Of a stretch of 64,000 bases of DNA, positions 1 through 24,954 are shown piece by piece. The first letter of the stretch is position 1; each line of letters starts with the position of its first letter. The translations under genes and the position numbers were made by a program. The stretch comes from Chlamydiales bacterium. GTDB lineage: Bacteria > Chlamydiota > Chlamydiia > Chlamydiales > SM23-39. The notes beneath the pieces are model-generated. The model did not search any database. It was given only the letters and a program-made list of their open reading frames with translations, and had not been told where the DNA came from. The stretch lies in the NCBI GenBank assembly GCA_965261025.1, contig OZ253438.1, positions 207,490 to 271,489 on the forward strand, written 5' to 3'.

Positions 1-1665
1 AGTCATTTTCAGCAAATTTTTACAGCTCATGGGGTTACCATGATTTTTTTCGTGGGGATGGGAGTGGTCTTTGGAATTATTAACTTAGTTTTGCCTTTAC
101 AGATAGGAGCTAGAGATGTTGCCTTTCCTTTTTTGAATTCTTTGAGTTTTTGGCTTTTTTCTTCTGGAGCCCTTTTTATTTTAGTTTCTTTAATGGTAGG
201 TGTTTTTGCAGGAACCGGGTGGACGGCTTACCCTCCTTTATCTTCTTTGAAGTACAGTCCCGGAGTAGGGGTCGATTATTGGCTCTGGAGTGTGCAAATT
301 TCAGGGGTAGGAACGCTTCTTTCAGGGATTAATTTTTTGGTTACGATTTTGAAGATGCGTTGTCCTGGAATGAGCTTTATGAAAATGCCTATATTTGTTT
401 GGAGTGTTTTAGCAACGGTGATTTTAGTTCTCTTTGCTTTTCCTATTTTGACAGCCACAGGAGCCATGCTTACTTCGGATAGACTCTTTCATACACAAAT
501 TTTCAATCCTGAAAAGGGGGGCAATCCCATGATGTATATCAACCTTATATGGGCTTGGGGACATCCTGAAGTATATATTTTAGTACTTCCTGCTTTTGGG
601 ATATTTTCCGAGATAGTACCTGTTTTTTCTCGAAAAAAACTCTTCGGCTATACCTCCATGGTTTGGGCTATTTTTGCTATTACGTTCCTCTCTTTTATCG
701 TTTGGCTTCACCACTTTTTTACCATGGGAGCAGGACCCAATGTAAATGCTTTTTTTGGGATTATGACCATGGTAATAGCTGTTCCAACAGGGGTAAAAGT
801 ATTTAATTGGCTTTTTACTTTGTTTCGAGGAAAAGTAGAATGCAAAACTCCCATGCTTTGGTTTTTTGCCTTTATCATTACTTTCACCATAGGAGGAATG
901 GCCGGAGTTTTAATGGCTATTCCAGGAGTCGATTTTCAGGCTCATAATAGCTTATTTTTAGTAGCGCATTTTCATTCGGTAATTATTGGGGGGGTGCTTT
1001 TTGGTTTTTTTGCTGGATATACTTATTGGTTTCCTAAGTTTTTTGGTTTTTGTTTAGAGGAAAAAACAGGAAGACAAGCTTTCTGGTGCTGGCTTATAGG
1101 TTTCTTAGTTGCTTTTTTGCCTCTTTACCTATTGGGTTTTATGGGCGCTACGAGAAGGCTCAATCACTACGAAGCAGAAACGGGATGGCAGCCTCTTTTT
1201 ATACTAGCCTCAATCGGGGCTATTTTTATTTTTTTTGGTTTTCTGCTCCAGATAAAGCAGTTATGGGTCTCTATTAAATATAGAGAGAAAAACAGAGATA
1301 CTACAGGAGACCCCTGGGGAGGAAGAACTCTAGAGTGGGCCTGCTCTTCTCCTCCTCCTTTTTATAATTTTGCTAAAACTGCTGAAGTACGTAGTAAAGA
1401 CCCCTTTTGGGAGGCAAAAAAGCAGAAAATCTCCCTTTTTCCTGGTAAATATGAAACAATTCATATGCCTAAAAACACAGCGACAGGTTTTTATGTAGGG
1501 GTAGGGAGTTTTATTTTTGGTTTTTCTATGGTATGGCACATTTTTTGGTTAGGACTGCTCAGCCTGGGTTTTCTTTTAGGCTCAATCATTTTGAGATTAT
1601 ATAAGAAAGAAGTGGAATACGCCATTTCTAAAGAAGAAATAGAGCATTTAGATAAAGGATCTTAA
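1..1665 (+). CDS. cyoB: Cytochrome bo3 (o-type) ubiquinol oxidase subunit I, 5' end outside window
   Basis: Frame 1 is open from nt 1 ([17 protein letters not shown]...), so the gene starts upstream. Heme-copper oxidase subunit I signatures [26 protein letters not shown] and LVAHFH are present. The C-terminal [27 protein letters not shown] and IHMPKNT closely resemble E. coli CyoB as I recall it. cyoC and cyoD follow directly. Confidence 0.9.
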
Positions 1666-2259
1666 ATGGAGGAAGTTAACACAAAGGCTTACCCTGATGT
1701 ACACCAGGATAGCTATTCGAAGACGATTTTTGGATTTTGGCTGTATCTATTTAGCGATTTTATTATGTTTGCCTCTTTGTTTGCTGTTTATGCTGTTTTA
1801 AGAACATCGCATGGATCTGAGAGTTTACAAAAACATCTAATGAGCCTTCCCTTTTCCTTTTTTCAAGCGGTTACTCTTTTTCTAGCTAGTTTTTCCTCAG
1901 GGATAGCAGGGGTTTTTACTCACAAAAGGAAAAAAAATCCCCTGATTCTTTGGTGGGCCATTACTTTTTTTTTCGGAGCTTTATTTTTTGTTTTACAGAT
2001 GAAAGAATTTTCCTATTTAGTCCAAGGGGGAAATACTTGGGCAAAAAATGCTTTTTTTTCGATCTATTTTACCATTGTAGCAACGCATATGCTTCATGTA
2101 TTTTTTGCTCTTGTTTGGATTGTAGTTCTTTTAATTCCTCTGCGAAAGAGTTTAATTCATTTAGTGGAGGTAAAAAGGTTTATTTGTCTGAAAATGTTTT
2201 GGCAATTTTTAAATGTAGTATGGGTTTTTATCTTTACCATAATTTACCTCATGAAATAA
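1666..2259 (+). CDS. cyoC: Cytochrome bo3 ubiquinol oxidase subunit III
   Basis: 197 aa, multi-TM. The ATG directly follows the cyoB stop. IFGFWLYLFSDFIMFASLFAVYAVL and the C-terminal FWQFLNVVWVFIFTIIYLMK parallel E. coli CyoC ([20 protein letters not shown]). Confidence 0.8.
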   Translation: MEEVNTKAYPDVHQDSYSKTIFGFWLYLFSDFIMFASLFAVYAVLRTSHGSESLQKHLMSLPFSFFQAVTLFLASFSSGIAGVFTHKRKKNPLILWWAITFFFGALFFVLQMKEFSYLVQGGNTWAKNAFFSIYFTIVATHMLHVFFALVWIVVLLIPLRKSLIHLVEVKRFICLKMFWQFLNVVWVFIFTIIYLMK

Positions 2260-2274
2260 GGGAGTTTTGCGTAA

Positions 2275-2595
2275 GTGGATCTTGAACACAAATGGAATCT
2301 TAGTTTGAAGCCCCTTTTAGGAGGGGGAATCGTTTCTTTTTCTCTACTTTGTTTCTCCTACTTCTTTGGAATAAATGCGCTATTTTTGCAGGACACTCTC
2401 CGGTGGATTTTAATGGGGCTAGCTTTATTTCAAGCGGTAGTACAACTTATTTTTTTTCTTCACTTAGGAATTGAGTCAAGGCCTAGGTGGAATTTGATGA
2501 TCTTTTTCTTTATGGTAGTAGTGATTTTCCTGGTAATTGGAGGCTCCCTCTGGATCATGCATAATCTGAGTTACAATGTAATGATAACCGATTAA
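2275..2595 (+). CDS. cyoD: Cytochrome bo3 ubiquinol oxidase subunit IV (small 3-TM subunit)
   Basis: 106 aa with three hydrophobic helices and a GTG start shortly after cyoC. The assignment rests mostly on size, topology and operon position. Confidence 0.6.
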   Translation: MDLEHKWNLSLKPLLGGGIVSFSLLCFSYFFGINALFLQDTLRWILMGLALFQAVVQLIFFLHLGIESRPRWNLMIFFFMVVVIFLVIGGSLWIMHNLSYNVMITD

Positions 2596-6744: not shown

Positions 6745-7260
6745 GTGGAAGATTTCATGACACCAATCATACCACATCCCACTGCTGTTTCCTGCATCTC
6801 CGGTTGGTTGAGAGATACAATCATCTGCTTTTTGATGGACAATCACAGCTTTTCTCAAAAGTGCTGTATCTGCTTTGCAAGGACAGGTTTTTCAAGGTGT
6901 TCTCCTATTTGGCATATCCTCTCTTATTGGTTACCAAATTTCCCCCATTGCGTGCGTTGCGATCTTTAGTATAGAGGCGCCCCTATTTTTTGTGAGTGGG
7001 GTTGAAATGACCTCCTGCAGAAAGAGAGATTTGGAGAGCTACAGTCTCCACATTCACGGATAGGAAATCCAGGTTCTCCCGGGCTTAGTCCCTCTATTTC
7101 AGCAGAGACCAAAACTCTGGTATTTTTTCTGGGTAAAGATCCCACCCACTGTTGCTTGACTATTTCAAGGTTCCTTTTCTCTTTTGTAAAAAAGGTTTTC
7201 CCCTTCCATAAAAATCCAGGAATTTTTGAGAAAATCCCTGCTATGACAAAGATCTATCTC
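6735..7260 (-). pseudogene. sodC: Decayed periplasmic Cu/Zn superoxide dismutase gene (multiple frameshifts, stops and ligand substitutions)
   Basis: Minus-strand translation spread over three frames gives TRVLVSAEIEGLSPGEPGFPIRECGDCSS, then AGGHFNPTHKK*, then DRNARNGGNLVTN, then KAVIVHQKADDCISQPTGDAGNS. This follows the SodC pattern (PGxHGFHIHExGxC / AGGHFNP / DRHxGDLGN / VVHxxxDDxxSQPTGNAG). No intact ORF exists, and His ligands are replaced (GFPIRE for GFHIHE). Confidence 0.6.
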
Positions 7261-7491: not shown

Positions 7492-10170
7492 TTACAAGGC
7501 CTCATCGTCTCCAATTTCCCGGTTTACAGTGTTTAAAAATGTCCTTTCTTTTATTGGTAAGCGCTTCCCTTTTTGAAGAAGATCGTAGGCTTGTTCTATA
7601 AGAGATTTTCCATCAGATTGTTCTAGGTCATAGACGGACTTTAAAAGAGAAGTGATGTGGCATCTTAGGATTGTTATTTTGTTCTGCAGTTGGGATATAT
7701 CAAGGCCTTCTATTCTGCCTTTGAGGCTGTGAAGTTGAACAATAGCAGAGAAAAGATGTATCGCTGAGGGATTTTGCTTTTTGGCTATAGCTTGCTCAGG
7801 GAGTAAATCTGAAGAAGTAAATTGCTTAATTACTTCGGTAGAAGTAGAAAAAGTCTCTTGAGAAATAGAAAAACCAAATAAGCGCTCATATTTGAAAGGG
7901 TTAAGACTTATTGCAATGTGGGTGATTTTTCTCCTCTCTTGCTCTAAGTCCCTCAGATAGTTTTCCCCTTCAAATAAGATTTCTATATAGTTCTGTATTT
8001 CTTCTTCAGTAGAATCTTTACTAAGAGAAGGCATGTTGAACTTTTTGTCGATAGATCGGTATTGTAAAGTCATTTTGTTACAGGTTTGCTTTACCTGCGG
8101 AAATCCCTGGTCTTCCTCTTTCTGGATTCGAAAGATTTCTTGCATTTTTAGGAGATCTTGAACTCCTTGTTGAGCAATTTGCTCCTCTTGAAGACGGAAA
8201 TTTTGAGCTTCTGTTTGGTCTGAAATTAACGCATTAAGCCTATCTAGTTCTTGTTGAAAAGAATCTGAATCTAAAAGTTTGAGAAGATAATTTTTTTCTT
8301 CCCTTACGCTAAGAAGGAAGGCTTGATGATAATTTTCTGGAGTAAGGTATTTAAATAGCCAGTCTCTTTGGCATCTATAAACTCCTTTAATGAATTCTAC
8401 CCTATCTTCATTGCTTTTTCCTTTAGTAACATGTTTATTCTTTAAATCTGTAAAGCTTGGTGAGCAATGAATAGGCGGCAAGGATTGGTGGATTGCTGTT
8501 GGGTTTTTAAAAATTTCTTCTAATTTTTTGACAAACTGTTCTTTACTTAAGAGTTTCGTATGATGGAAGTTTTCATAGGCTCTTATTTCAAAATCTAATA
8601 CTTGTAGCAGAGCGGTATAGTAATTCTCAGGGGATAGATTTAAATTAGACAATATATCTCTGGCTTTTTTAAAGGTCTCTTTGATGTCTTGAAAAATTTC
8701 AGGCTTCTCCTTTTCGGAAAATCCCGTTTCAAGCTCCTCTAATAAGGACATGTACTGATTTGATAATGCCATCGATTCTTTAAGAAACTGGAGTAAATAT
8801 TTGAGAAATTTCTGATTTGCATCTGGACTGCTCCCGAGAAATATCAAACCCGTTTCTTTTGAGGTCCTTGATATAGGATTTATATTGGAATGAAACATTT
8901 TTTCTTTTTCCTTTTTTCCCTCTTCAAAACACCTAGCTACTTCTTCCTTACTGGGGAACTCTCTTTTAATTCTAGTAAGTTCTTGATTATAACTTTCTTG
9001 TGGCAGGGTTTCTTGAAGTAGTCTTTTCTCTCTATTTAAAATCCCAACAAGTTTTGAGTAATCCTCGAGGGTCTTAACAGGTTTTGATTTTAAAGGCTCT
9101 TTTGCTCTTTCAAAAGTTGTCTGTATTTCTCTCAGGCTAGGATATCTCGAAGAGATAATCTGAGATTGAGAATCATAGTCAGCTTCAGATAGAAATTGCC
9201 TTAATAAATTCAGTCTGATTTTTAGAACCTCCACTAAATGCTCTAAGCAACCTATGGTTTTATCTTCTTGGTTTTTTAAGGAGTCTTCTACCGTTTTAAA
9301 ATTTTTTTCTATTTCCTCCATTATTCGTATTTTTTCTTGGGAAAATGCCCTTTTATCTAGGAATCGTTTGGATAGAGCATATTCATCTAGCAGAACTACT
9401 TGGAATCCTTGGATGTATTCTATTCCTTCCGTGGTAGCTTGTAGGATAATCTTTTGTAATCTAAAATGATCGATTAGATCGGATGCTTTTTGTTTGTCCG
9501 AAATATTCTGGTTTTTTATTGTATTTTTTCTTTCTTCAAGGTTGTTAAAAAGGGACGAAAAAGACCTTTTTTCTAGAAATAGAAATTTTTGAAATAGGCC
9601 TTTTATAAAAAATTCTTCTTCAAGGAATTTTTCACTTATTGCACGCTGTTCGGCTACATTAGAAATTTCCTTTGTCTTTTCTTCTTTTTTATCAGAAAAA
9701 GCTCTTCCTAACTGGTTCAGAATATCTTGTTGCAGATCTTTGGAAAGCGCGCTCTCTTGATATGTTGCAAGTGTAAAAAACTCCTCTACTAAGAGATCTA
9801 ATATTTGTTGAAAGAGTAAAATTCTTTCCGTTTTGTTTTTTTTTACCTTTACTAAACTGCGTAGAAAGTCAGCGGTTACTATAAAATGCGCCTTTAGTTT
9901 TTCTGCTCTATGATCGGGGGTATTTTTTAGTACAAAGAGTTTTTCTTTTCGAAGAATTATCCATTCAGATAGTGATGGACCTATTTCTTCTTGTGCCATT
10001 CTATTAAGTAGTGCTGCAGTCATTAGAGGTTCTTTTGGGCTTAGTCGTTCATAACGCTTAAAAATTTCCTGCACAAAGTCAATTAAATGTCGAGGTGAAG
10101 GTTGTGATGGTTTTGAGGAAGATGAGGTACTAAATTCCGTAATATTATTAGTTGGTCCGACAGCTGTCAT
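7492..10170 (-). CDS. Large hypothetical protein, alpha-helical with internal repeats; no recognisable domain
   Basis: Uninterrupted 892-aa ORF with a Ser/Thr/Pro-rich N-terminus (MTAVGPTNNITEFSTSSSSKPSQPSP). E/K/L/Q-rich throughout, with recurring modules (LSPENYYTALLQVLDFEI, LTPENYHQAFLLSVREE, LPQESYNQELTRIKREF). Confidence 0.6.
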   Translation of the reverse strand: MTAVGPTNNITEFSTSSSSKPSQPSPRHLIDFVQEIFKRYERLSPKEPLMTAALLNRMAQEEIGPSLSEWIILRKEKLFVLKNTPDHRAEKLKAHFIVTADFLRSLVKVKKNKTERILLFQQILDLLVEEFFTLATYQESALSKDLQQDILNQLGRAFSDKKEEKTKEISNVAEQRAISEKFLEEEFFIKGLFQKFLFLEKRSFSSLFNNLEERKNTIKNQNISDKQKASDLIDHFRLQKIILQATTEGIEYIQGFQVVLLDEYALSKRFLDKRAFSQEKIRIMEEIEKNFKTVEDSLKNQEDKTIGCLEHLVEVLKIRLNLLRQFLSEADYDSQSQIISSRYPSLREIQTTFERAKEPLKSKPVKTLEDYSKLVGILNREKRLLQETLPQESYNQELTRIKREFPSKEEVARCFEEGKKEKEKMFHSNINPISRTSKETGLIFLGSSPDANQKFLKYLLQFLKESMALSNQYMSLLEELETGFSEKEKPEIFQDIKETFKKARDILSNLNLSPENYYTALLQVLDFEIRAYENFHHTKLLSKEQFVKKLEEIFKNPTAIHQSLPPIHCSPSFTDLKNKHVTKGKSNEDRVEFIKGVYRCQRDWLFKYLTPENYHQAFLLSVREEKNYLLKLLDSDSFQQELDRLNALISDQTEAQNFRLQEEQIAQQGVQDLLKMQEIFRIQKEEDQGFPQVKQTCNKMTLQYRSIDKKFNMPSLSKDSTEEEIQNYIEILFEGENYLRDLEQERRKITHIAISLNPFKYERLFGFSISQETFSTSTEVIKQFTSSDLLPEQAIAKKQNPSAIHLFSAIVQLHSLKGRIEGLDISQLQNKITILRCHITSLLKSVYDLEQSDGKSLIEQAYDLLQKGKRLPIKERTFLNTVNREIGDDEAL

Positions 10171-19358: not shown

Positions 19359-19564
19359 CTTAGCAAGAAAGTAAGGTTATGGTCAATCAAAATACCTATT
19401 TGTCTTGCTCATACAGGGAAAGATAAAGTATAATTTTAAGCAGACTCTAGCTTAAAAATACCAGGTGGCAGCTCCATAACATAAAGCTTATTTTAACCTT
19501 GCTCCCACAGCAATCCTTTCTTAGAATTGGTAATATTTCTCTAAATTGTTACAATGTCTTCCCT

Positions 19565-20803
19565 ATGAAAAAATTTAAAATTGTTACCCTAGGTTGTAGA
19601 ACAAATCAGTACGAGTCAGCTGCCTATACAGATCAGCTCAAAAAGCTGGGATATCTTCCTTGCTCAGAAGAAGAGCAAGCAGATATATGCATACTAAACA
19701 CTTGTACCGTAACTCATTCTGCCGATGTTCGTTCTAAAGCCAGTCTAAGGCAGCTTTTACATCAAAATCCTAAAGCGACTCTTTTCGTAACAGGATGCAT
19801 GGTAGAGGAAGCTAAAAAACAAATCCAGGAGGAAAGGGTTGTTTTTGTTCCGAATAAAGAAAAAGAAAACTTGATAGAGTGGGTTTTTCCAGAAGAGCAA
19901 AATCTACCCGAATTTTCTATAGAACAGTTTGAAGCACATACAAGAGCTTTTGTAAAAGTGCAAGATGGGTGTAATTCTTTTTGTAGCTACTGCATTATTC
20001 CCTATGTAAGGGGTAGATCTCGCTGTCGCTGTAGTAAAGAAGTAGTAGACGAGGTAAAAAATTTAATAAACCAGGGATATAAAGAAATTGTTTTGACAGG
20101 GATTAACATTGGGGACTATGAAGACGGGGAAAAAAACCTAGCTGATCTTGTGCGTGAAGTAGATCAGATTAAAGGGCTTCACAGGCTTCGACTCTCCTCC
20201 ATTGATGCAGATGAGGTGGATGGGAATTTAGTAGAGGCCATTTTGCAAGGAAAAACTACGTGCCCTAGTATGCATATCGTCTTACAGTCTGGTTCAAATG
20301 TCATCTTAAAGAAAATGAATCGGAAATATACCCGCCAGATCTTCTTGGATACAGTAGAAAAATTGAGAAAAGAAAACTCTGATTTCACTGTAACTACTGA
20401 TGTAATTGTGGGATTTCCGGGGGAAACAGAAGAAGATTTTTGTGATACCTTGGAAGTAATAGAGAAAGTTCGCTTTGCTAAAGTGCATATGTTTCCCTTT
20501 AGTCCTAGGAAAAGAACTAAAGCAGCCACTTTTTTAAACCAGATAGATCCAAAAACTATTCAAATAAGAAAAAGAAAACTTTTACAAAAAGCAGAGGAGG
20601 TAGCCTTTTTATTAAGGGAGAAGTTCGTGGGAAGAAAAGTACCTGTTTTACTAGAAGAAAGGGTCTCTAAAGATTATATAGCAGGGCATACTCCTAACTT
20701 TTTAAGAGTAAAAGTGGCTTCTTCTTCTTTAGAAAAAAATCAGATAGTAGAGGTTCTTTTACAGGAAAACCGAGAAGACGGATTTTTAGGGGTTACCTTA
20801 TGA
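19565..20803 (+). CDS. mtaB: MiaB/RimO-family radical-SAM methylthiotransferase, MtaB-like
   Basis: The N-terminal UPF0004 domain starts MKKFKIVTLGCRTNQYES. Has the radical-SAM CNSFCSYC (CX3CX2C) and a C-terminal TRAM-like region. The ATG at 19565 is preferred over the upstream TTG used in the ORF track. Confidence 0.8.
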   Translation: MKKFKIVTLGCRTNQYESAAYTDQLKKLGYLPCSEEEQADICILNTCTVTHSADVRSKASLRQLLHQNPKATLFVTGCMVEEAKKQIQEERVVFVPNKEKENLIEWVFPEEQNLPEFSIEQFEAHTRAFVKVQDGCNSFCSYCIIPYVRGRSRCRCSKEVVDEVKNLINQGYKEIVLTGINIGDYEDGEKNLADLVREVDQIKGLHRLRLSSIDADEVDGNLVEAILQGKTTCPSMHIVLQSGSNVILKKMNRKYTRQIFLDTVEKLRKENSDFTVTTDVIVGFPGETEEDFCDTLEVIEKVRFAKVHMFPFSPRKRTKAATFLNQIDPKTIQIRKRKLLQKAEEVAFLLREKFVGRKVPVLLEERVSKDYIAGHTPNFLRVKVASSSLEKNQIVEVLLQENREDGFLGVTL

Positions 20804-21846
20804 AAATAACCTTGTCACAAAGGCTTAAACCCTTTTCTTTCTGTAAAGGAGGGGAGATAACGCTTCCTGGGTCTTTTGTCACCTTGAAAATATTTCCCAC
20901 AAAGGTGGAGATTTTTCCTTTAGGAGGAGAGGAAAAGAAGCTTTTTTTTGCTTTACAGGGGCCATTTCCTCTGTTTTTCTATCAAAGTAATATAGAAAAA
21001 AGAAGAATTGAGGTTTTCTTCAGAAATGACAGAGGTTTTTTTTCCTATCATTTATTCTTACGAAAAGGAAAGTTTTCTTTTTTTCTAGCAAGAGGGGATT
21101 TTCTGGTGTTAGAAGAAAAGGGGATAAAAAGTGAGCTGAGAAAGAAACAAACGCTCTCTTGGGACTTAACCCCGGTAGAATCTTCTAATAATTTCTGTGA
21201 GAAAATTGCCTTCGGTTGTCACAAAAAGCAGGAAATAGAGAAAGTTCTTCTAAGAAAAGATCCTAAGGAGTTTTTTCCCTTTTGGTTTCGGCTCGGAAAT
21301 CTTTGTCCTCGATTAGGAAAAGAAAAAAGCCCTTTTTTCTCCGATATGGAAAAAGCTTTTTTACGAAAGGACCCCACCTTTTTAGTGAAAAGACTCTCTC
21401 TTCTTTTAGAGGTTGCCTTTTCTGGTTTTTTTGTTCCTTCTCTTCAAGATAAGACAGAACAAAACCTTCCTTTTCCTTCTGGAGATCTTGCCCACCCTTA
21501 TCTTCTCTTACAAGAAGGTGCTTTTTGGATAAAGCATCTTTTTTTGCAAGAGGAAAAAGAGGGCCTAGCTCTCTTAAAAAATCTTCCTAAAGAGCTTCCT
21601 TTTGGAAGGGCCAAGGGGCTTATCTGCTTTTTGGGAAAAATAGACCTAGAGTGGTCTAAGAAAAAAATAAAAAAGGCCATCTTGTACCCTGAAAAAACAG
21701 GCCATTTTCGTCTTTTTCTAAAACCCTGTTTTCAGCGATTTCGCCTTCGAAGAAGAAAAAAAGAAAAAGGGGTCTTTGTACGAGCAGATTCTTTTTTCTC
21801 GATAGAAAAAGGAAATACCCTCTACCTAGACAGATTCGAAAAGTAA
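20800..21846 (+). CDS. Hypothetical protein (no recognisable domain)
   Basis: 348-aa ORF whose ATG overlaps the mtaB stop (ATGA), suggesting co-translation. F/K-rich, with no motif I recognise. Confidence 0.5.
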   Translation: MKITLSQRLKPFSFCKGGEITLPGSFVTLKIFPTKVEIFPLGGEEKKLFFALQGPFPLFFYQSNIEKRRIEVFFRNDRGFFSYHLFLRKGKFSFFLARGDFLVLEEKGIKSELRKKQTLSWDLTPVESSNNFCEKIAFGCHKKQEIEKVLLRKDPKEFFPFWFRLGNLCPRLGKEKSPFFSDMEKAFLRKDPTFLVKRLSLLLEVAFSGFFVPSLQDKTEQNLPFPSGDLAHPYLLLQEGAFWIKHLFLQEEKEGLALLKNLPKELPFGRAKGLICFLGKIDLEWSKKKIKKAILYPEKTGHFRLFLKPCFQRFRLRRRKKEKGVFVRADSFFSIEKGNTLYLDRFEK

Positions 21847-21870
21847 AGAGAAATAGCCCCTCCTATTCCT

Positions 21871-22014
21871 CTATTGTTTACAAGCGCATTGGGGAGAGCA
21901 TTCACAGCTATCTTCACAAATGCATTCGGAGCGATTACAATCCTCTTTTTGTTTTTTTTCAAAAGAGCAACTCAGAAAGAAAAGAAAGCAAAGACAAAAA
22001 CCGATTTTTTTCAC
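21871..22014 (-). CDS. Small (47 aa) cysteine-rich lipoprotein-like peptide, below the ORF-track cutoff
   Basis: GTG at 22014 is preceded by GAGG with a 6-nt spacer. Translation is (M)KKIGFCLCFLFFLSCSFEKKQKEDCNRSECICEDSCECSPQCACKQ*. That gives a signal peptide with lipobox-like FLSC, then 8 Cys in 32 residues. It lies antisense to a weak TTG-initiated 67-aa plus-strand ORF. Confidence 0.45.
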   Translation of the reverse strand: MKKIGFCLCFLFFLSCSFEKKQKEDCNRSECICEDSCECSPQCACKQ

Positions 22015-22099
22015 TCGAAACCTCGATTTGGTTGGTTCACTTCAGGATTTCTGATTTTTTCTTTGCTTTCAATTTAATTTTTGCGAAAATCGCGCAAAC

Positions 22100-22978
22100 A
22101 TGGAAAATCTCAAAAGCTTTCCCTTTTTTATGAGGGAGTACTTTCTTCTTACTAAACCAGGAATTTTAGTAGGGAATGTGCTAAATGCCTTAGGGGGTTT
22201 TTTTTTAGCCTCCTCTTCTATAAACCCTTTACTTTGGCAGGTCCTTTTAGGACTTTTGTCAGTAATGGCCTCTGCTTGTATTTTCAATAACTATGTGGAT
22301 AGGGAAATAGATGCAAAAATGCAAAGAACGCAGGATAGAGCTTTAGCACAAGGAAAAGTTTCTTCAAAAAAGGCCCTTTTTTTGGGTGTCATATTATTGA
22401 TTTATGGAATAGCAGCTCTTTATCTTTCTGCCAATTTTTTAACAGCCCTTTGCGCTTTTTTGGGTTTTTTTATATATGTGGGTATTTATAGCTTTGTCAA
22501 GTACTACACTAGCTTGGCTACCTTAATAGGAAGTATAGCGGGAGCTATGCCTCCTTTAGTAGGGTATTTTTCTCAAAAAGCAGAGATAGATGGCGTTTCC
22601 TTTTTGTTGTTTGCCTTGGTTGCCTCTTGGCAAATGCCCCATTTTTTATCTATTGCTATTTACCGGATAGAAGATTACCGAAGAGCAAAGATTCCTGTTA
22701 TCCCTTTACAAAAGGGGTTCAAAAAGACAAAAAAGCAAATGCTTTTCTACGTGATACTTTTTTGTCTTTTTGCCCTTTTTCTTTCTAGGGCTGCTTTTGT
22801 GGGGTTTTTGTATAAAGGAGTTCTTGTCGTCTTAGGGGGAGGCTGGATTTTACTTTGCCTAAAGGGTTTTTTTACTTCTCAAGACGAAAAATGGGCTCGT
22901 CAGATGTTTCGTTTTTCGCTTATGGTAATCTTAGGGCTGTTTCTCTCTTTTTTAGGGAAGTTTCTCTTGCAAAATTAA
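22100..22978 (+). CDS. cyoE: Protoheme IX farnesyltransferase (heme O synthase)
   Basis: 292 aa UbiA-type prenyltransferase with NNYVDREIDAKMQRTQDR and multiple TM helices. This matches the heme O requirement of the bo3 oxidase. Confidence 0.9.
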   Translation: MENLKSFPFFMREYFLLTKPGILVGNVLNALGGFFLASSSINPLLWQVLLGLLSVMASACIFNNYVDREIDAKMQRTQDRALAQGKVSSKKALFLGVILLIYGIAALYLSANFLTALCAFLGFFIYVGIYSFVKYYTSLATLIGSIAGAMPPLVGYFSQKAEIDGVSFLLFALVASWQMPHFLSIAIYRIEDYRRAKIPVIPLQKGFKKTKKQMLFYVILFCLFALFLSRAAFVGFLYKGVLVVLGGGWILLCLKGFFTSQDEKWARQMFRFSLMVILGLFLSFLGKFLLQN

Positions 22979-24185: not shown

Positions 24186-24258
24186 GGGGGCTTAGCTTAG
24201 TTGGTAGAGCGTCTGATTTGCATTCAGAAGGTCAGGAGTTCGAATCTCCTAGCCTCCA
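24186..24258 (+). tRNA. tRNA-Ala (anticodon UGC)
   Basis: Cloverleaf folded by hand. The acceptor GGGGGCT/AGCCTCC includes the G3:U70 alanine identity pair. The anticodon loop is TTTGCAT and the T-arm is AGGAG-TTCGAAT-CTCCT. CCA is not encoded. Confidence 0.95.
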
Positions 24259-24264
24259 TTTCTT

Positions 24265-24338
24265 GCGGTTATAGCTCAGCTGGTTAGAGCGCGACACTGA
24301 TAATGTCGAGGTCCCAAGTTCAAGTCTTGGTAACCGCA
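24265..24338 (+). tRNA. tRNA-Ile (anticodon GAU)
   Basis: Acceptor GCGGTTA/TAACCGC, D-arm GCTC-AGCTGGTTAG-AGC, anticodon stem CGACA/TGTCG with loop CTGATAA, and T-arm CCAAG-TTCAAGT-CTTGG. Confidence 0.95.
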
Positions 24339-24465
24339 TACTCTCTTCGAATTTTTCTACAGAAAAGTCTGAAAGGTTTGTTCTATCGTTTTTTCCGTTT
24401 TAGGGGAAAGAGTTTTGTAAAATTCGTTTTATTTGCTACAACAAGAAGAAACAGCAAGAGGTTTT

Positions 24466-24954
24466 ATGCAAAAGAAAAATCAATCATTGCACCGCTTGTG
24501 GGGCTTTCTTTTTTTGTTATCTTTGGTTTTTCTTATTCAGTATATGGGAGCTTTCTTTACAGGTAGCTCTTCTCAGCAGTGGTATTATTCTTTAAATAAA
24601 CCAAGCTGGACTCCAAAACAGGAAGTTTTTACTCCTATTTGGACCTTTCTGTATCTAATAGTCGCAGCGGTAGCGTACTTTTTATGGAAAGAAAAGCCCT
24701 CTAGTAACAGGAAGAAAGCTCTTTTTTTCTGGGGATTACAGCTTCTTGCCAATGGTCTTTGGTCCTTTTCTTTCTTCTATTTTCAAAACATCACTTTGGC
24801 CCTGTGGAATTTAGGGCTTATCGTTGTTTTAGTTTTGATCTTATTTCATTACGCTAAGAAGGTATCCAGTATGGCCAGCGTGCTTTTACTTCCCTTTTTC
24901 CTTTGGCTTCTTTATGCATTTTGCCTGAATTTCAGCATCTGGATGCAAAACTAA
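24466..24954 (+). CDS. tspO: TspO/MBR family tryptophan-rich sensory protein
   Basis: WYYSLNKPSWTPKQEVFTPIWTFLYLIVAAVAY and five TM helices are typical of TspO. The ATG at 24466 is preceded by AGAGG. Confidence 0.85.
   Translation: MQKKNQSLHRLWGFLFLLSLVFLIQYMGAFFTGSSSQQWYYSLNKPSWTPKQEVFTPIWTFLYLIVAAVAYFLWKEKPSSNRKKALFFWGLQLLANGLWSFSFFYFQNITLALWNLGLIVVLVLILFHYAKKVSSMASVLLLPFFLWLLYAFCLNFSIWMQN

Follow-up and report, generated by a model that had tools for sequence, protein, structure and literature searches.

An open reading frame (ORF) of 47 codons on the minus strand of a 64,000-nucleotide stretch of a Chlamydiales genome (contig OZ253438.1; this whole stretch is called the window below) is almost certainly a real gene, and its product is probably a small, Cys-rich lipoprotein. 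Homologues from two further genomes preserve its reading frame, and in all three cases the gene lies head-to-head with cyoE, the gene for heme O synthase. The best overall reading, offered tentatively and at a little short of an even chance, is that the product would be a lipid-anchored periplasmic metal-thiolate peptide, perhaps a copper buffer or donor, with a role tied to bo3 oxidase or heme O biogenesis. The features of the small gene, by position in the window, are these:

21871-22014, minus strand: coding sequence of the small gene, a predicted 47-amino-acid prolipoprotein, TAG stop included (ORF listing; kept in the homologous loci L001 and L015)
22021-22024, minus strand: Shine-Dalgarno sequence GAGG, 6 nt ahead of the GTG start (GAGGG in L001 and AAGGAGG in L015, before ATG starts)
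21970-22014, minus strand: predicted signal peptide, residues 1-15: MKK as n-region, 11 residues of hydrophobic core, then FLS, the lipobox residues before Cys16 (PS51257-type rule)
21967-21969, minus strand: codon of Cys16, predicted lipid-modified residue 1 of the mature peptide (Cys16 in all three homologues)
21877-21945, minus strand: Cys domain, residues E24-K46 (23 residues), EDCNRSECICEDSCECSPQCACK, with 7 invariant Cys
21847-21872, minus strand: terminator-like hairpin starting from the stop codon, a 10-bp stem and then UUUACUUUU (RNA fold)

Structure of the small gene

On the minus strand of positions 21600-22300, the GTG at 22014 is the first start past an upstream stop, and the frame runs to a TAG stop at 21873-21871 to give the product MKKIGFCLCFLFFLSCSFEKKQKEDCNRSECICEDSCECSPQCACKQ. 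The FLSC codons occupy 21978-21967, and from Cys16 on there are 8 Cys in 32 residues. The first-pass annotation had described this ORF by its GTG start with GAGG 6 nt upstream, its 47-residue product, its FLSC motif and this same Cys count, and the reading bears out each of these. Spacing within the Cys domain is C-x4-CxC-x3-CxC-x3-CxC, that is, three CxC pairs plus one Cys. Counting all 47 codons there are 10 Cys, against 1.2 expected from base composition (P ~7e-7), the highest Cys content among the small ORFs of the window. It is also the only one among 324 window ORFs of 30-80 amino acids to pass a lipoprotein rule of the PROSITE PS51257 type (positive n-region, hydrophobic core, lipobox [LVI][ASTVI][GAS]C, with the Cys at position 15-35).

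The hairpin at the stop codon folds at -11.6 kcal/mol (z = -4.4), a value equalled by 0 of 200 shuffled sequences, and together with the U-tract that follows it suggests that the small gene has its own transcription unit. Rfam gives no match at gathering score, the one chance-level match (E = 0.67) falling over this hairpin. Two homopolymer tracts inside the ORF, A7 at 22011-22005 and A8 at 21959-21952, are present as annotated. The accompanying suggestion that they make the gene prone to slippage finds no support, as A/T runs of at least 7 occur at 2.4 per kb in the window, the two runs are Lys codons, and A8 is absent from L015.

Homologues and evidence for a protein-coding gene

Direct protein searches were blind to the small peptide, and for this reason the neighbouring protein of 348 residues was taken as the search anchor. 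A relative with 54% identity, P0002, is encoded in assembly GCA_964351495.1 (locus L001, one contig), a related chlamydial metagenome-assembled genome (MAG) in which the gene order mtaB, 345-amino-acid gene, cyoE is retained. A 241-bp gap at this locus holds an uncalled ORF of 47 codons, at 7040-7183 on the minus strand, with the product MKKGLFLFFSLLFTCCSSPEQKKEDCNISECVCEDTCGCSSGCACKK. The two peptides are identical at 26 of 47 positions overall and at 18 of 24 across the Cys domain, which is more than their flanking proteins show (54% for the 348-residue protein, 58% for CyoE). The third homologue, at locus L015, came from a scan of DNA for the bare Cys spacing, with one genome per species, that produced at least 120 matches, mostly low-complexity noise. 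It is an ORF of 53 amino acids, MKKSVLLMSCLILSACAAPSQEDCNRPECGCETDCDCSELCACKCNAPAEPKN, at 1464-1625 on the plus strand of a 7.7-kb MAG contig with 52.5% GC, with AAGGAGG as its ribosome site and LSAC as a canonical lipobox. Its membership is supported by a leave-one-out profile built from the window and L001 peptides, which scores L015 at 36 bits and the top non-member at 15 bits, against a background of 36,254 six-frame segments (among them about 240 loci picked for the same Cys spacing).

Residues invariant in all three homologues are M1, K2, K3, L11 and C16, followed by E24, D25, C26, N27, E30, C31, C33 and E34 and then by C37, C39, S40, C43, A44, C45 and K46. The Cys domain thus has the consensus EDCN-x2-ECxCE-x2-CxCS-x2-CACK, with 15 residues invariant, 7 of 7 Cys included. 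The sequences have diverged as protein-coding DNA does. In a six-frame comparison of the homologues, the sense frame has the top pairwise identity (0.75, 0.67 and 0.62), the antisense frames are lower, and one alternative frame is interrupted by stops. Differences at codon positions 1, 2 and 3 number 4/4/11, 7/6/13 and 8/8/15 for the three pairs, an excess at the third position (one-sided Fisher p = 0.010, 0.024 and 0.018, respectively), and switches between TGT and TGC leave Cys unchanged. For the window and L001, the ratio of nonsynonymous to synonymous differences per site (pN/pS) comes to 0.38 for the entire ORF and to 0.17 for the Cys domain, where pN is 0.14; pS is saturated, at 0.71-0.83. 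This conservation spans genomes of 37% and 52.5% GC. Start, stop, length, ribosome site and the character of the signal peptide are kept although the signal sequence itself diverges.

A plus-strand ORF of 67 amino acids covers the same DNA, and the first-pass annotation had allowed that this, and not the minus-strand frame, might prove to be the conserved one. It is not: its L001 counterpart is broken into ORFs of 40 and 29 amino acids. Frame conservation in relatives had been proposed as a test of the small gene, and the frame holds in both L001 and L015. The relatives keep the frame and the plus-strand ORF is not conserved; therefore the small gene is taken to be real. As judged from these alignments, the comparison shows purifying selection in three uncultured lineages on the reading frame, its length, the MKK and hydrophobic signal, Cys16 and the Cys domain.

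Linkage to cyoE

The genes that matter for the context of the small gene are the following, all in window coordinates:

22100-22978, plus strand: cyoE, heme O synthase, the divergent partner (NF003348 286.7 bits, TIGR01473 261.5 bits, both above cut-off)
20800-21846, plus strand: 348-amino-acid hypothetical protein, its start overlapping the mtaB stop (ATGA; ORF listing)
19499-20803, plus strand: MtaB, tRNA methylthiotransferase (TIGR01579 437 bits, cut-off 357)
4-2595, plus strand: genes of the bo3 quinol oxidase, namely cyoC, cyoD and a cyoB that runs off the window edge (identified with L015 proteins by tblastn and BLASTP)

In three of three lineages the small gene is head-to-head with cyoE, at a distance of 85 bp in the window, 96 bp in L001 and 63-78 bp in L015. 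The L015 homologue (L015/L248) sits inside a complete oxidase cluster, which Pfam assignments give as cyoA-cyoB-cyoC-cyoD, then the small gene on the opposite strand, then cyoE. Its TAA stop on the plus strand overlaps the TAA stop of cyoD on the minus strand, the two forming the palindrome TTAA at 1622-1625. All five cyo genes are contiguous there, unlike in the window, where they are split: cyoE is 19.5 kb from cyoBCD, and the small gene stayed beside cyoE. (If, as in E. coli, a single transcript covers the L015 cyoABCDE genes, it would be antisense to the small gene along its whole length.) In the window, glgB and ligA come directly after cyoD, and an Mdt-type RND efflux operon, gatCAB and mtaB precede cyoE.

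The CyoB, CyoC and CyoD proteins of L015 are 73%, 52% and 47% identical to their window counterparts. L015 CyoB is 60.5% identical to that of E. coli, and L015 CyoE is 45-48% identical to the chlamydial CyoE proteins and 53% to that of E. coli. From the CyoB and CyoE identities it follows that L015 is well separated from the organism of the window. The window and L001 share ancestry, so the cyoE linkage can be counted as independent only twice. That a second genome should by chance place the small gene beside one given gene is unlikely, with a probability of about 1 in 1,000 or less.

Farther relatives of the 348-residue protein (P0003, P0004, P0006, P0009 and P0015) retain linkage to mtaB, and their loci contain neither cyoE nor a Cys-rich ORF. 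No other Cys-rich ORF lies near the small gene in the window, and no metal-resistance genes are adjacent to it, the nearby RND pump being of the multidrug (Mdt) type.

The predicted product

The N-terminal signal consists of MKK, then 11-12 hydrophobic residues, then Cys16, and a hydrophobic stretch of this length falls short of what a helix needs to span a membrane. As for the lipobox, it is FLSC in the window, LSAC in L015 and, atypically, FTCC in L001, with the Cys at position 16 in all three; the window and L015 sequences pass the PS51257-type rule. The product is thus likely to be a lipoprotein.

The mature peptides would have 32-38 residues, with 8-9 Cys (24-25%), 6-8 acidic residues, 0-1 aromatic residues, and neither His nor Met. 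Small size, richness in Cys, CxC motifs and a scarcity of aromatic residues and His are the operational marks of metallothioneins, and the mature peptides have all of them. AlphaFold2, applied to the Cys domain without metal, gives a predicted local distance difference test (pLDDT) score of 52.5 and no secondary structure. Such a low score is compatible with a peptide that would fold on metal, yet it is uninformative and no evidence for this.

Proposed function

We propose that the precursor would be exported by Sec, lipidated by Lgt on Cys16 and cleaved by signal peptidase II, so that a mature peptide of about 32 residues would be tethered to a membrane on its periplasmic side. Its 7 close thiolates, set among acidic residues, could wrap around a small metal-thiolate cluster, most likely of Cu(I), in the manner of a metallothionein. 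Such a membrane-tethered buffer or donor might serve or protect the maturation of the heme o3-CuB centre in the bo3 quinol oxidase, copper being handed over when and where CyoE supplies heme O (compare Cox11/CtaG, Sco, CtaK and Csp1, below). That the bound metal would serve the bo3 oxidase is suggested because the small gene travels with the gene for heme O synthase and with the cyoABCD cluster. The parts of this proposal are not equally probable. Binding of metal by the thiolates of the mature peptide stands at an even chance; a role tied to the oxidase comes just below that; and copper specifically as the bound metal is possible, though doubtful. The most exact version, in which the peptide would be a Cu(I)-thiolate chaperone that loads CuB of bo3-type oxidases alongside the delivery of heme O by CyoE, is rather unlikely as it stands.

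Copper metallothioneins such as MymT and that of Neurospora crassa are likewise tiny, with about 25% Cys, no His or Met, and almost no aromatic residues. The 7-Cys fungal protein holds a Cu(I)6 cluster, and its sequence, which we take to be GDCGCSGASSCNCGSGCSCSNCGSK, has the same Cys inventory as the Cys domain (7, six of them as three CxC pairs), with the order of motifs mirrored. MymT is a small bacterial metallothionein that was overlooked by annotation and is copper-protective (PMC7558416), and the small gene is likewise tiny and was likewise missed. The bacterial metallothioneins described in that review are without export signals (PMC7558416), whereas the small peptide has a secretion and lipoprotein signal, and its gene is linked to cyoE and not to metal-resistance genes. 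In its proposed working the peptide comes closest to a copper metallothionein joined to a lipoprotein anchor.

Among assembly factors, Cox11 chaperones CuB from a membrane anchor on the periplasmic side and binds Cu(I) at a site made of Cys (PMC7558416). It is built of a single transmembrane helix plus an Ig-like domain of some 120 residues in which two Cys bind Cu, where the small peptide has a predicted lipid anchor and a multi-thiolate motif. In alpha-proteobacteria the Cox11/CtaG gene adjoins ctaB, the gene for heme O synthase, an arrangement matched by the pairing of the small gene with cyoE. At 47 amino acids in total and without a Pfam or NCBIfam match, the small peptide is no Cox11/CtaG protein, and the likeness is one of function and context, not of sequence or size. 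Sco (YpmQ) and CtaK of Bacillus subtilis are extracytoplasmic lipoproteins that act as copper chaperones and are required when heme-copper oxidases are assembled at low copper (PMC9145763). Both are folded domains (a thioredoxin fold with CxxxC...H, and a His/Met site) that serve CuA, unlike the small peptide. The bo3 quinol oxidase is without CuA. Methanotrophs export Csp1, a storage protein whose many Cys thiolates bind Cu(I) outside the cytosol and keep it in reserve for a copper enzyme of the membrane (PMC7558416). It shows that thiolate clusters of Cu(I) are possible in the periplasm. Csp1 leaves the cytosol by the Tat route and forms a rigid tetramer of four-helix bundles, each monomer taking 13 Cu; it is no lipopeptide and has no similarity to the small peptide.

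If the version with a Cu(I)-thiolate chaperone for CuB is true, the small peptide would be a minimal analogue of Cox11 and the first exported, membrane-tethered bacterial metallothionein. It would be a candidate for the route by which copper reaches the buried CuB of bo3 quinol oxidases, for the E. coli enzyme, a review knows no specific assembly factor besides heme O synthase (PMC9145763). Bacterial metallothioneins are few, and a lipid-anchored one would also place thiolate-cluster chemistry in the cell envelope.

Several observations weigh against this proposal. The L001 lipobox, FTCC, fails the strict PS51257-type rule, although Cys16 is kept. Residue +2 is Ser or Ala, and E. coli sorts lipoproteins with either residue there to the outer membrane; under the same rule the peptide would lie away from the oxidase. 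Periplasmic copper sites are more often built of Met and His, and free thiols in an oxidising compartment could form disulfides instead. None of the sequences matches any metallothionein family in Pfam at E up to 10. Finally, the linkage to cyoE rests on just two independent lineages, and in E. coli, where 11 bp separate cyoD and cyoE, there is no small gene between them; E. coli and most cyo-bearing bacteria do without it, so that it cannot be a general requirement of bo3 oxidases.

Alternative explanations

The cyoE linkage would be equally expected of an accessory to CyoE or bo3 that works independently of metal, as a disulfide-stabilised lipopeptide subunit or assembly factor docking on CyoE or CyoB, or as a thiol-redox relay at the membrane surface. 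Small accessory proteins (e.g. CydX, CcoQ and CtaM) are common in terminal oxidases, and acidic residues, conserved in between the Cys, might offer a surface for docking. Regular CxC-x3 spacing without a hydrophobic core is, however, typical of metal-thiolate peptides and not of disulfide-rich mini-proteins, the Cys count of the mature domain (7, 7 or 8, and 8) gives no evidence of a fixed disulfide pairing, and AlphaFold2 yields no fold; this explanation is unlikely, if by no means negligible. It is improbable, too, that the peptide is a periplasmic metallothionein of a generic kind, one that would detoxify Cu, Zn or Cd as a lipid-anchored sponge and whose position beside cyoE means nothing. 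The composition is metallothionein-like and MymT is a precedent (PMC7558416), but the pair with cyoE is kept although CyoE proteins are just 45% identical across the lineages, it is kept after cyoE left cyoABCD, and no metal-resistance genes are adjacent. The first-pass annotation had called the gene lipoprotein-like and Cys-rich, which stands, and had offered two roles for it. Of these the metal-binding peptide is retained; what favours it is context, because in every case the gene has as its partner cyoE, which belongs to the heme-copper bo3 oxidase. The other was a lipoprotein of the OmcA/CrpA type, disulfide cross-linked in the chlamydial outer-membrane complex, of which OmcA is a 9-kDa lipoprotein (PMC2811131). 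OmcA (CrpA) is likewise a small Cys-rich chlamydial lipoprotein, the neighbouring gene has relatives that carry the name Chlamydiae or Parachlamydiaceae, the Ser at +2 fits the outer membrane, and the TCC junction of L001 resembles the SSCC that we take OmcA to have. Homology is nevertheless undetectable. Pfam gives no OmcA match at E up to 10, BLASTP against what we take to be the C. trachomatis OmcA sequence gives E = 3.3, and the mature part is about 1/3 the length of OmcA. The gene omcA adjoins omcB in an operon, whereas the neighbours here are the 348-residue hypothetical protein and cyoE, with no omcB-like Cys-rich ORF nearby. The L015 homologue, moreover, lies within a cyo cluster, in a genome that has 52.5% GC and a CyoE nearer to that of E. 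coli than to the chlamydial ones. The OmcA type is accordingly given no better a chance than the generic sponge, and the proposal of a metal-thiolate peptide serving the oxidase is preferred to it.

It could be that there is no gene, the conserved DNA being the promoter or 5' leader of cyoE and the minus-strand ORF incidental. The window and L001 do share a 10/12 sigma-70-like element directed toward cyoE (see below), but a promoter does not account for protein-like change with a third-position excess and the low pN/pS in the Cys domain, for the keeping of every Cys through TGT/TGC switches, or for the conservation of start, stop, length, ribosome site and signal character while antisense frames are less conserved. 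As a replacement for the gene, the promoter is very improbable; since the element is conserved in both chlamydial loci, promoter and gene could both be present. Hardly any weight at all falls on the precursor of a radical-SAM-modified Cys-rich peptide (SCIFF or ranthipeptide-like) served by a nearby maturase, an idea that comes from finding a Cys-rich peptide of about 47 residues two genes from a radical SAM protein. That protein is MtaB, at 80 bits above the TIGR01579 cut-off, the L015 homologue has no radical SAM gene nearby, the N-terminal stretch is of the secretion type and not a leader, and no NCBIfam SCIFF model matches at E up to 1.

Candidate regulatory DNA

Two candidate regulatory features lie between and within the divergent genes:

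22040-22091, no strand assigned: non-coding block, conserved within the 85 bp that separate the divergent genes and putatively a promoter or operator for both (window against L001)
21913-21941, plus strand: sigma-70-like element TTCACA-17-TACAAT, antisense within the small ORF and directed toward cyoE (10/12 match)

The non-coding block is identical at 42 of 52 positions between the window and L001 (at about 7200-7260 in the latter), and at 34 of 38 in its first part. Third codon positions of the same two loci are 54-55% identical, below the block. Its core, ATTGAA[A/C]GCAAG, recurs in L015 (1429-1441), and a 15-mer of the block has a single occurrence in the window. The block may be a promoter or operator shared by the two genes.

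The sigma-70-like element lies about 150 nt from cyoE, and the homologous L001 site (7082-7110, plus strand) has a TG-extended -10. The element is the reverse complement of conserved codons, those of Cys33-Glu34 and Asp25-Cys26-Asn27, and because of this overlap coding constraint alone may explain its conservation. The corresponding bases of the GC-rich L015 locus, TTCACA-17-TGCAAT, fail the promoter rule; the Cys33 codon there is the sole TGT among the 7 Cys codons. If the element is active, the transcripts of cyoE and the small gene would overlap head-to-head.

Distribution of the family

By sequence, the small peptide is a member of no family with which it was compared (Pfam, NCBIfam, PDB and Rfam). 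Up to E = 10, none of the three homologues has a match to a Pfam family, the OmcA and metallothionein families included, and no NCBIfam family is matched by the small peptide. A profile search of the PDB finds only weak matches (E >= 0.23), to signal peptides of known lipoproteins that end in SAC, and no metallothionein among them. A word-index protein search gives zero candidates, and an exhaustive phmmer search of 1.84e9 protein representatives gives 0 matches at E up to 1e-3, a null explained by the fact that the window peptide scores even L015 at just 25 bits. Exact-sequence look-ups return no record for the small peptide, the window CyoE or the 348-residue neighbour. When 5.8e9 predicted proteins are searched for any two of the blocks EDCN, ECxCE and CACK (with a profile in which 19 synthetic x-scan sequences were added to the three real ones), the sole match, P0018, is the L015 peptide.

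Other searches of DNA, beyond the scan that gave L015, add no member. A scan of genome contigs anchored on the neighbour gives no match, a Cys-skeleton scan of metagenome contigs has no member among the matches listed (mostly (TG)n-type repeats), and the same kind of scan of viral contigs has none. With tblastn against plasmids there is one match (E = 7), a zinc finger of a Methylomonas DNA ligase gene, which is spurious. In the literature collection searched, no publication combines cyoE, cysteine-rich and lipoprotein. It would appear that the family is very rare, and its known distribution is a lower bound, since the ORF is uncalled in both chlamydial genomes and since the two large DNA scans each gave at least 120 matches, so that members may lie beyond those listed. 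A conserved gene that annotation leaves out and that standard searches do not see marks a gap in annotation.

The pattern scans also turned up unrelated small Cys-rich ORFs that are possible unannotated bacterial metallothioneins. L133 (about 2100-2280, plus strand) has a secreted-looking peptide of 58 amino acids with CKC/CEC repeats, MRLLLLSLLLAAPYAFADDHCKCGDSCKCEACKDGDCKCEGKCECGDKCDCSGCKKE; L065, from a Cryomorphaceae MAG, has one of 23 amino acids, MDCNCDKCNCGSSCSCGSDCSCA; and metallothionein-like ORFs occur at L061 and L096, in a Sericytochromatia MAG and at one more locus.

Other features of the neighbourhood

The mtaB gene and the gene of the 348-residue type form a conserved pair in Chlamydiae. 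At loci L001-L007 the homologue directly follows an MtaB-type radical SAM gene, and at L251 and L252 the gene upstream of it is truncated by the contig end. The 348-residue protein itself has a weak, sub-threshold match to the C-terminal domain of glycoside hydrolase family 95. Elsewhere in the window, an ORF of 892 amino acids at 7492-10170 (minus strand) has neither a Pfam nor an NCBIfam match. Past cyoE, some 2 kb from the small gene, are two adjacent tRNA genes, at 24186-24338 on the plus strand (Rfam, 72.8 and 73.5 bits), and a TspO/MBR family protein is encoded at 24433-24954, also on the plus strand (Pfam, 127 bits).

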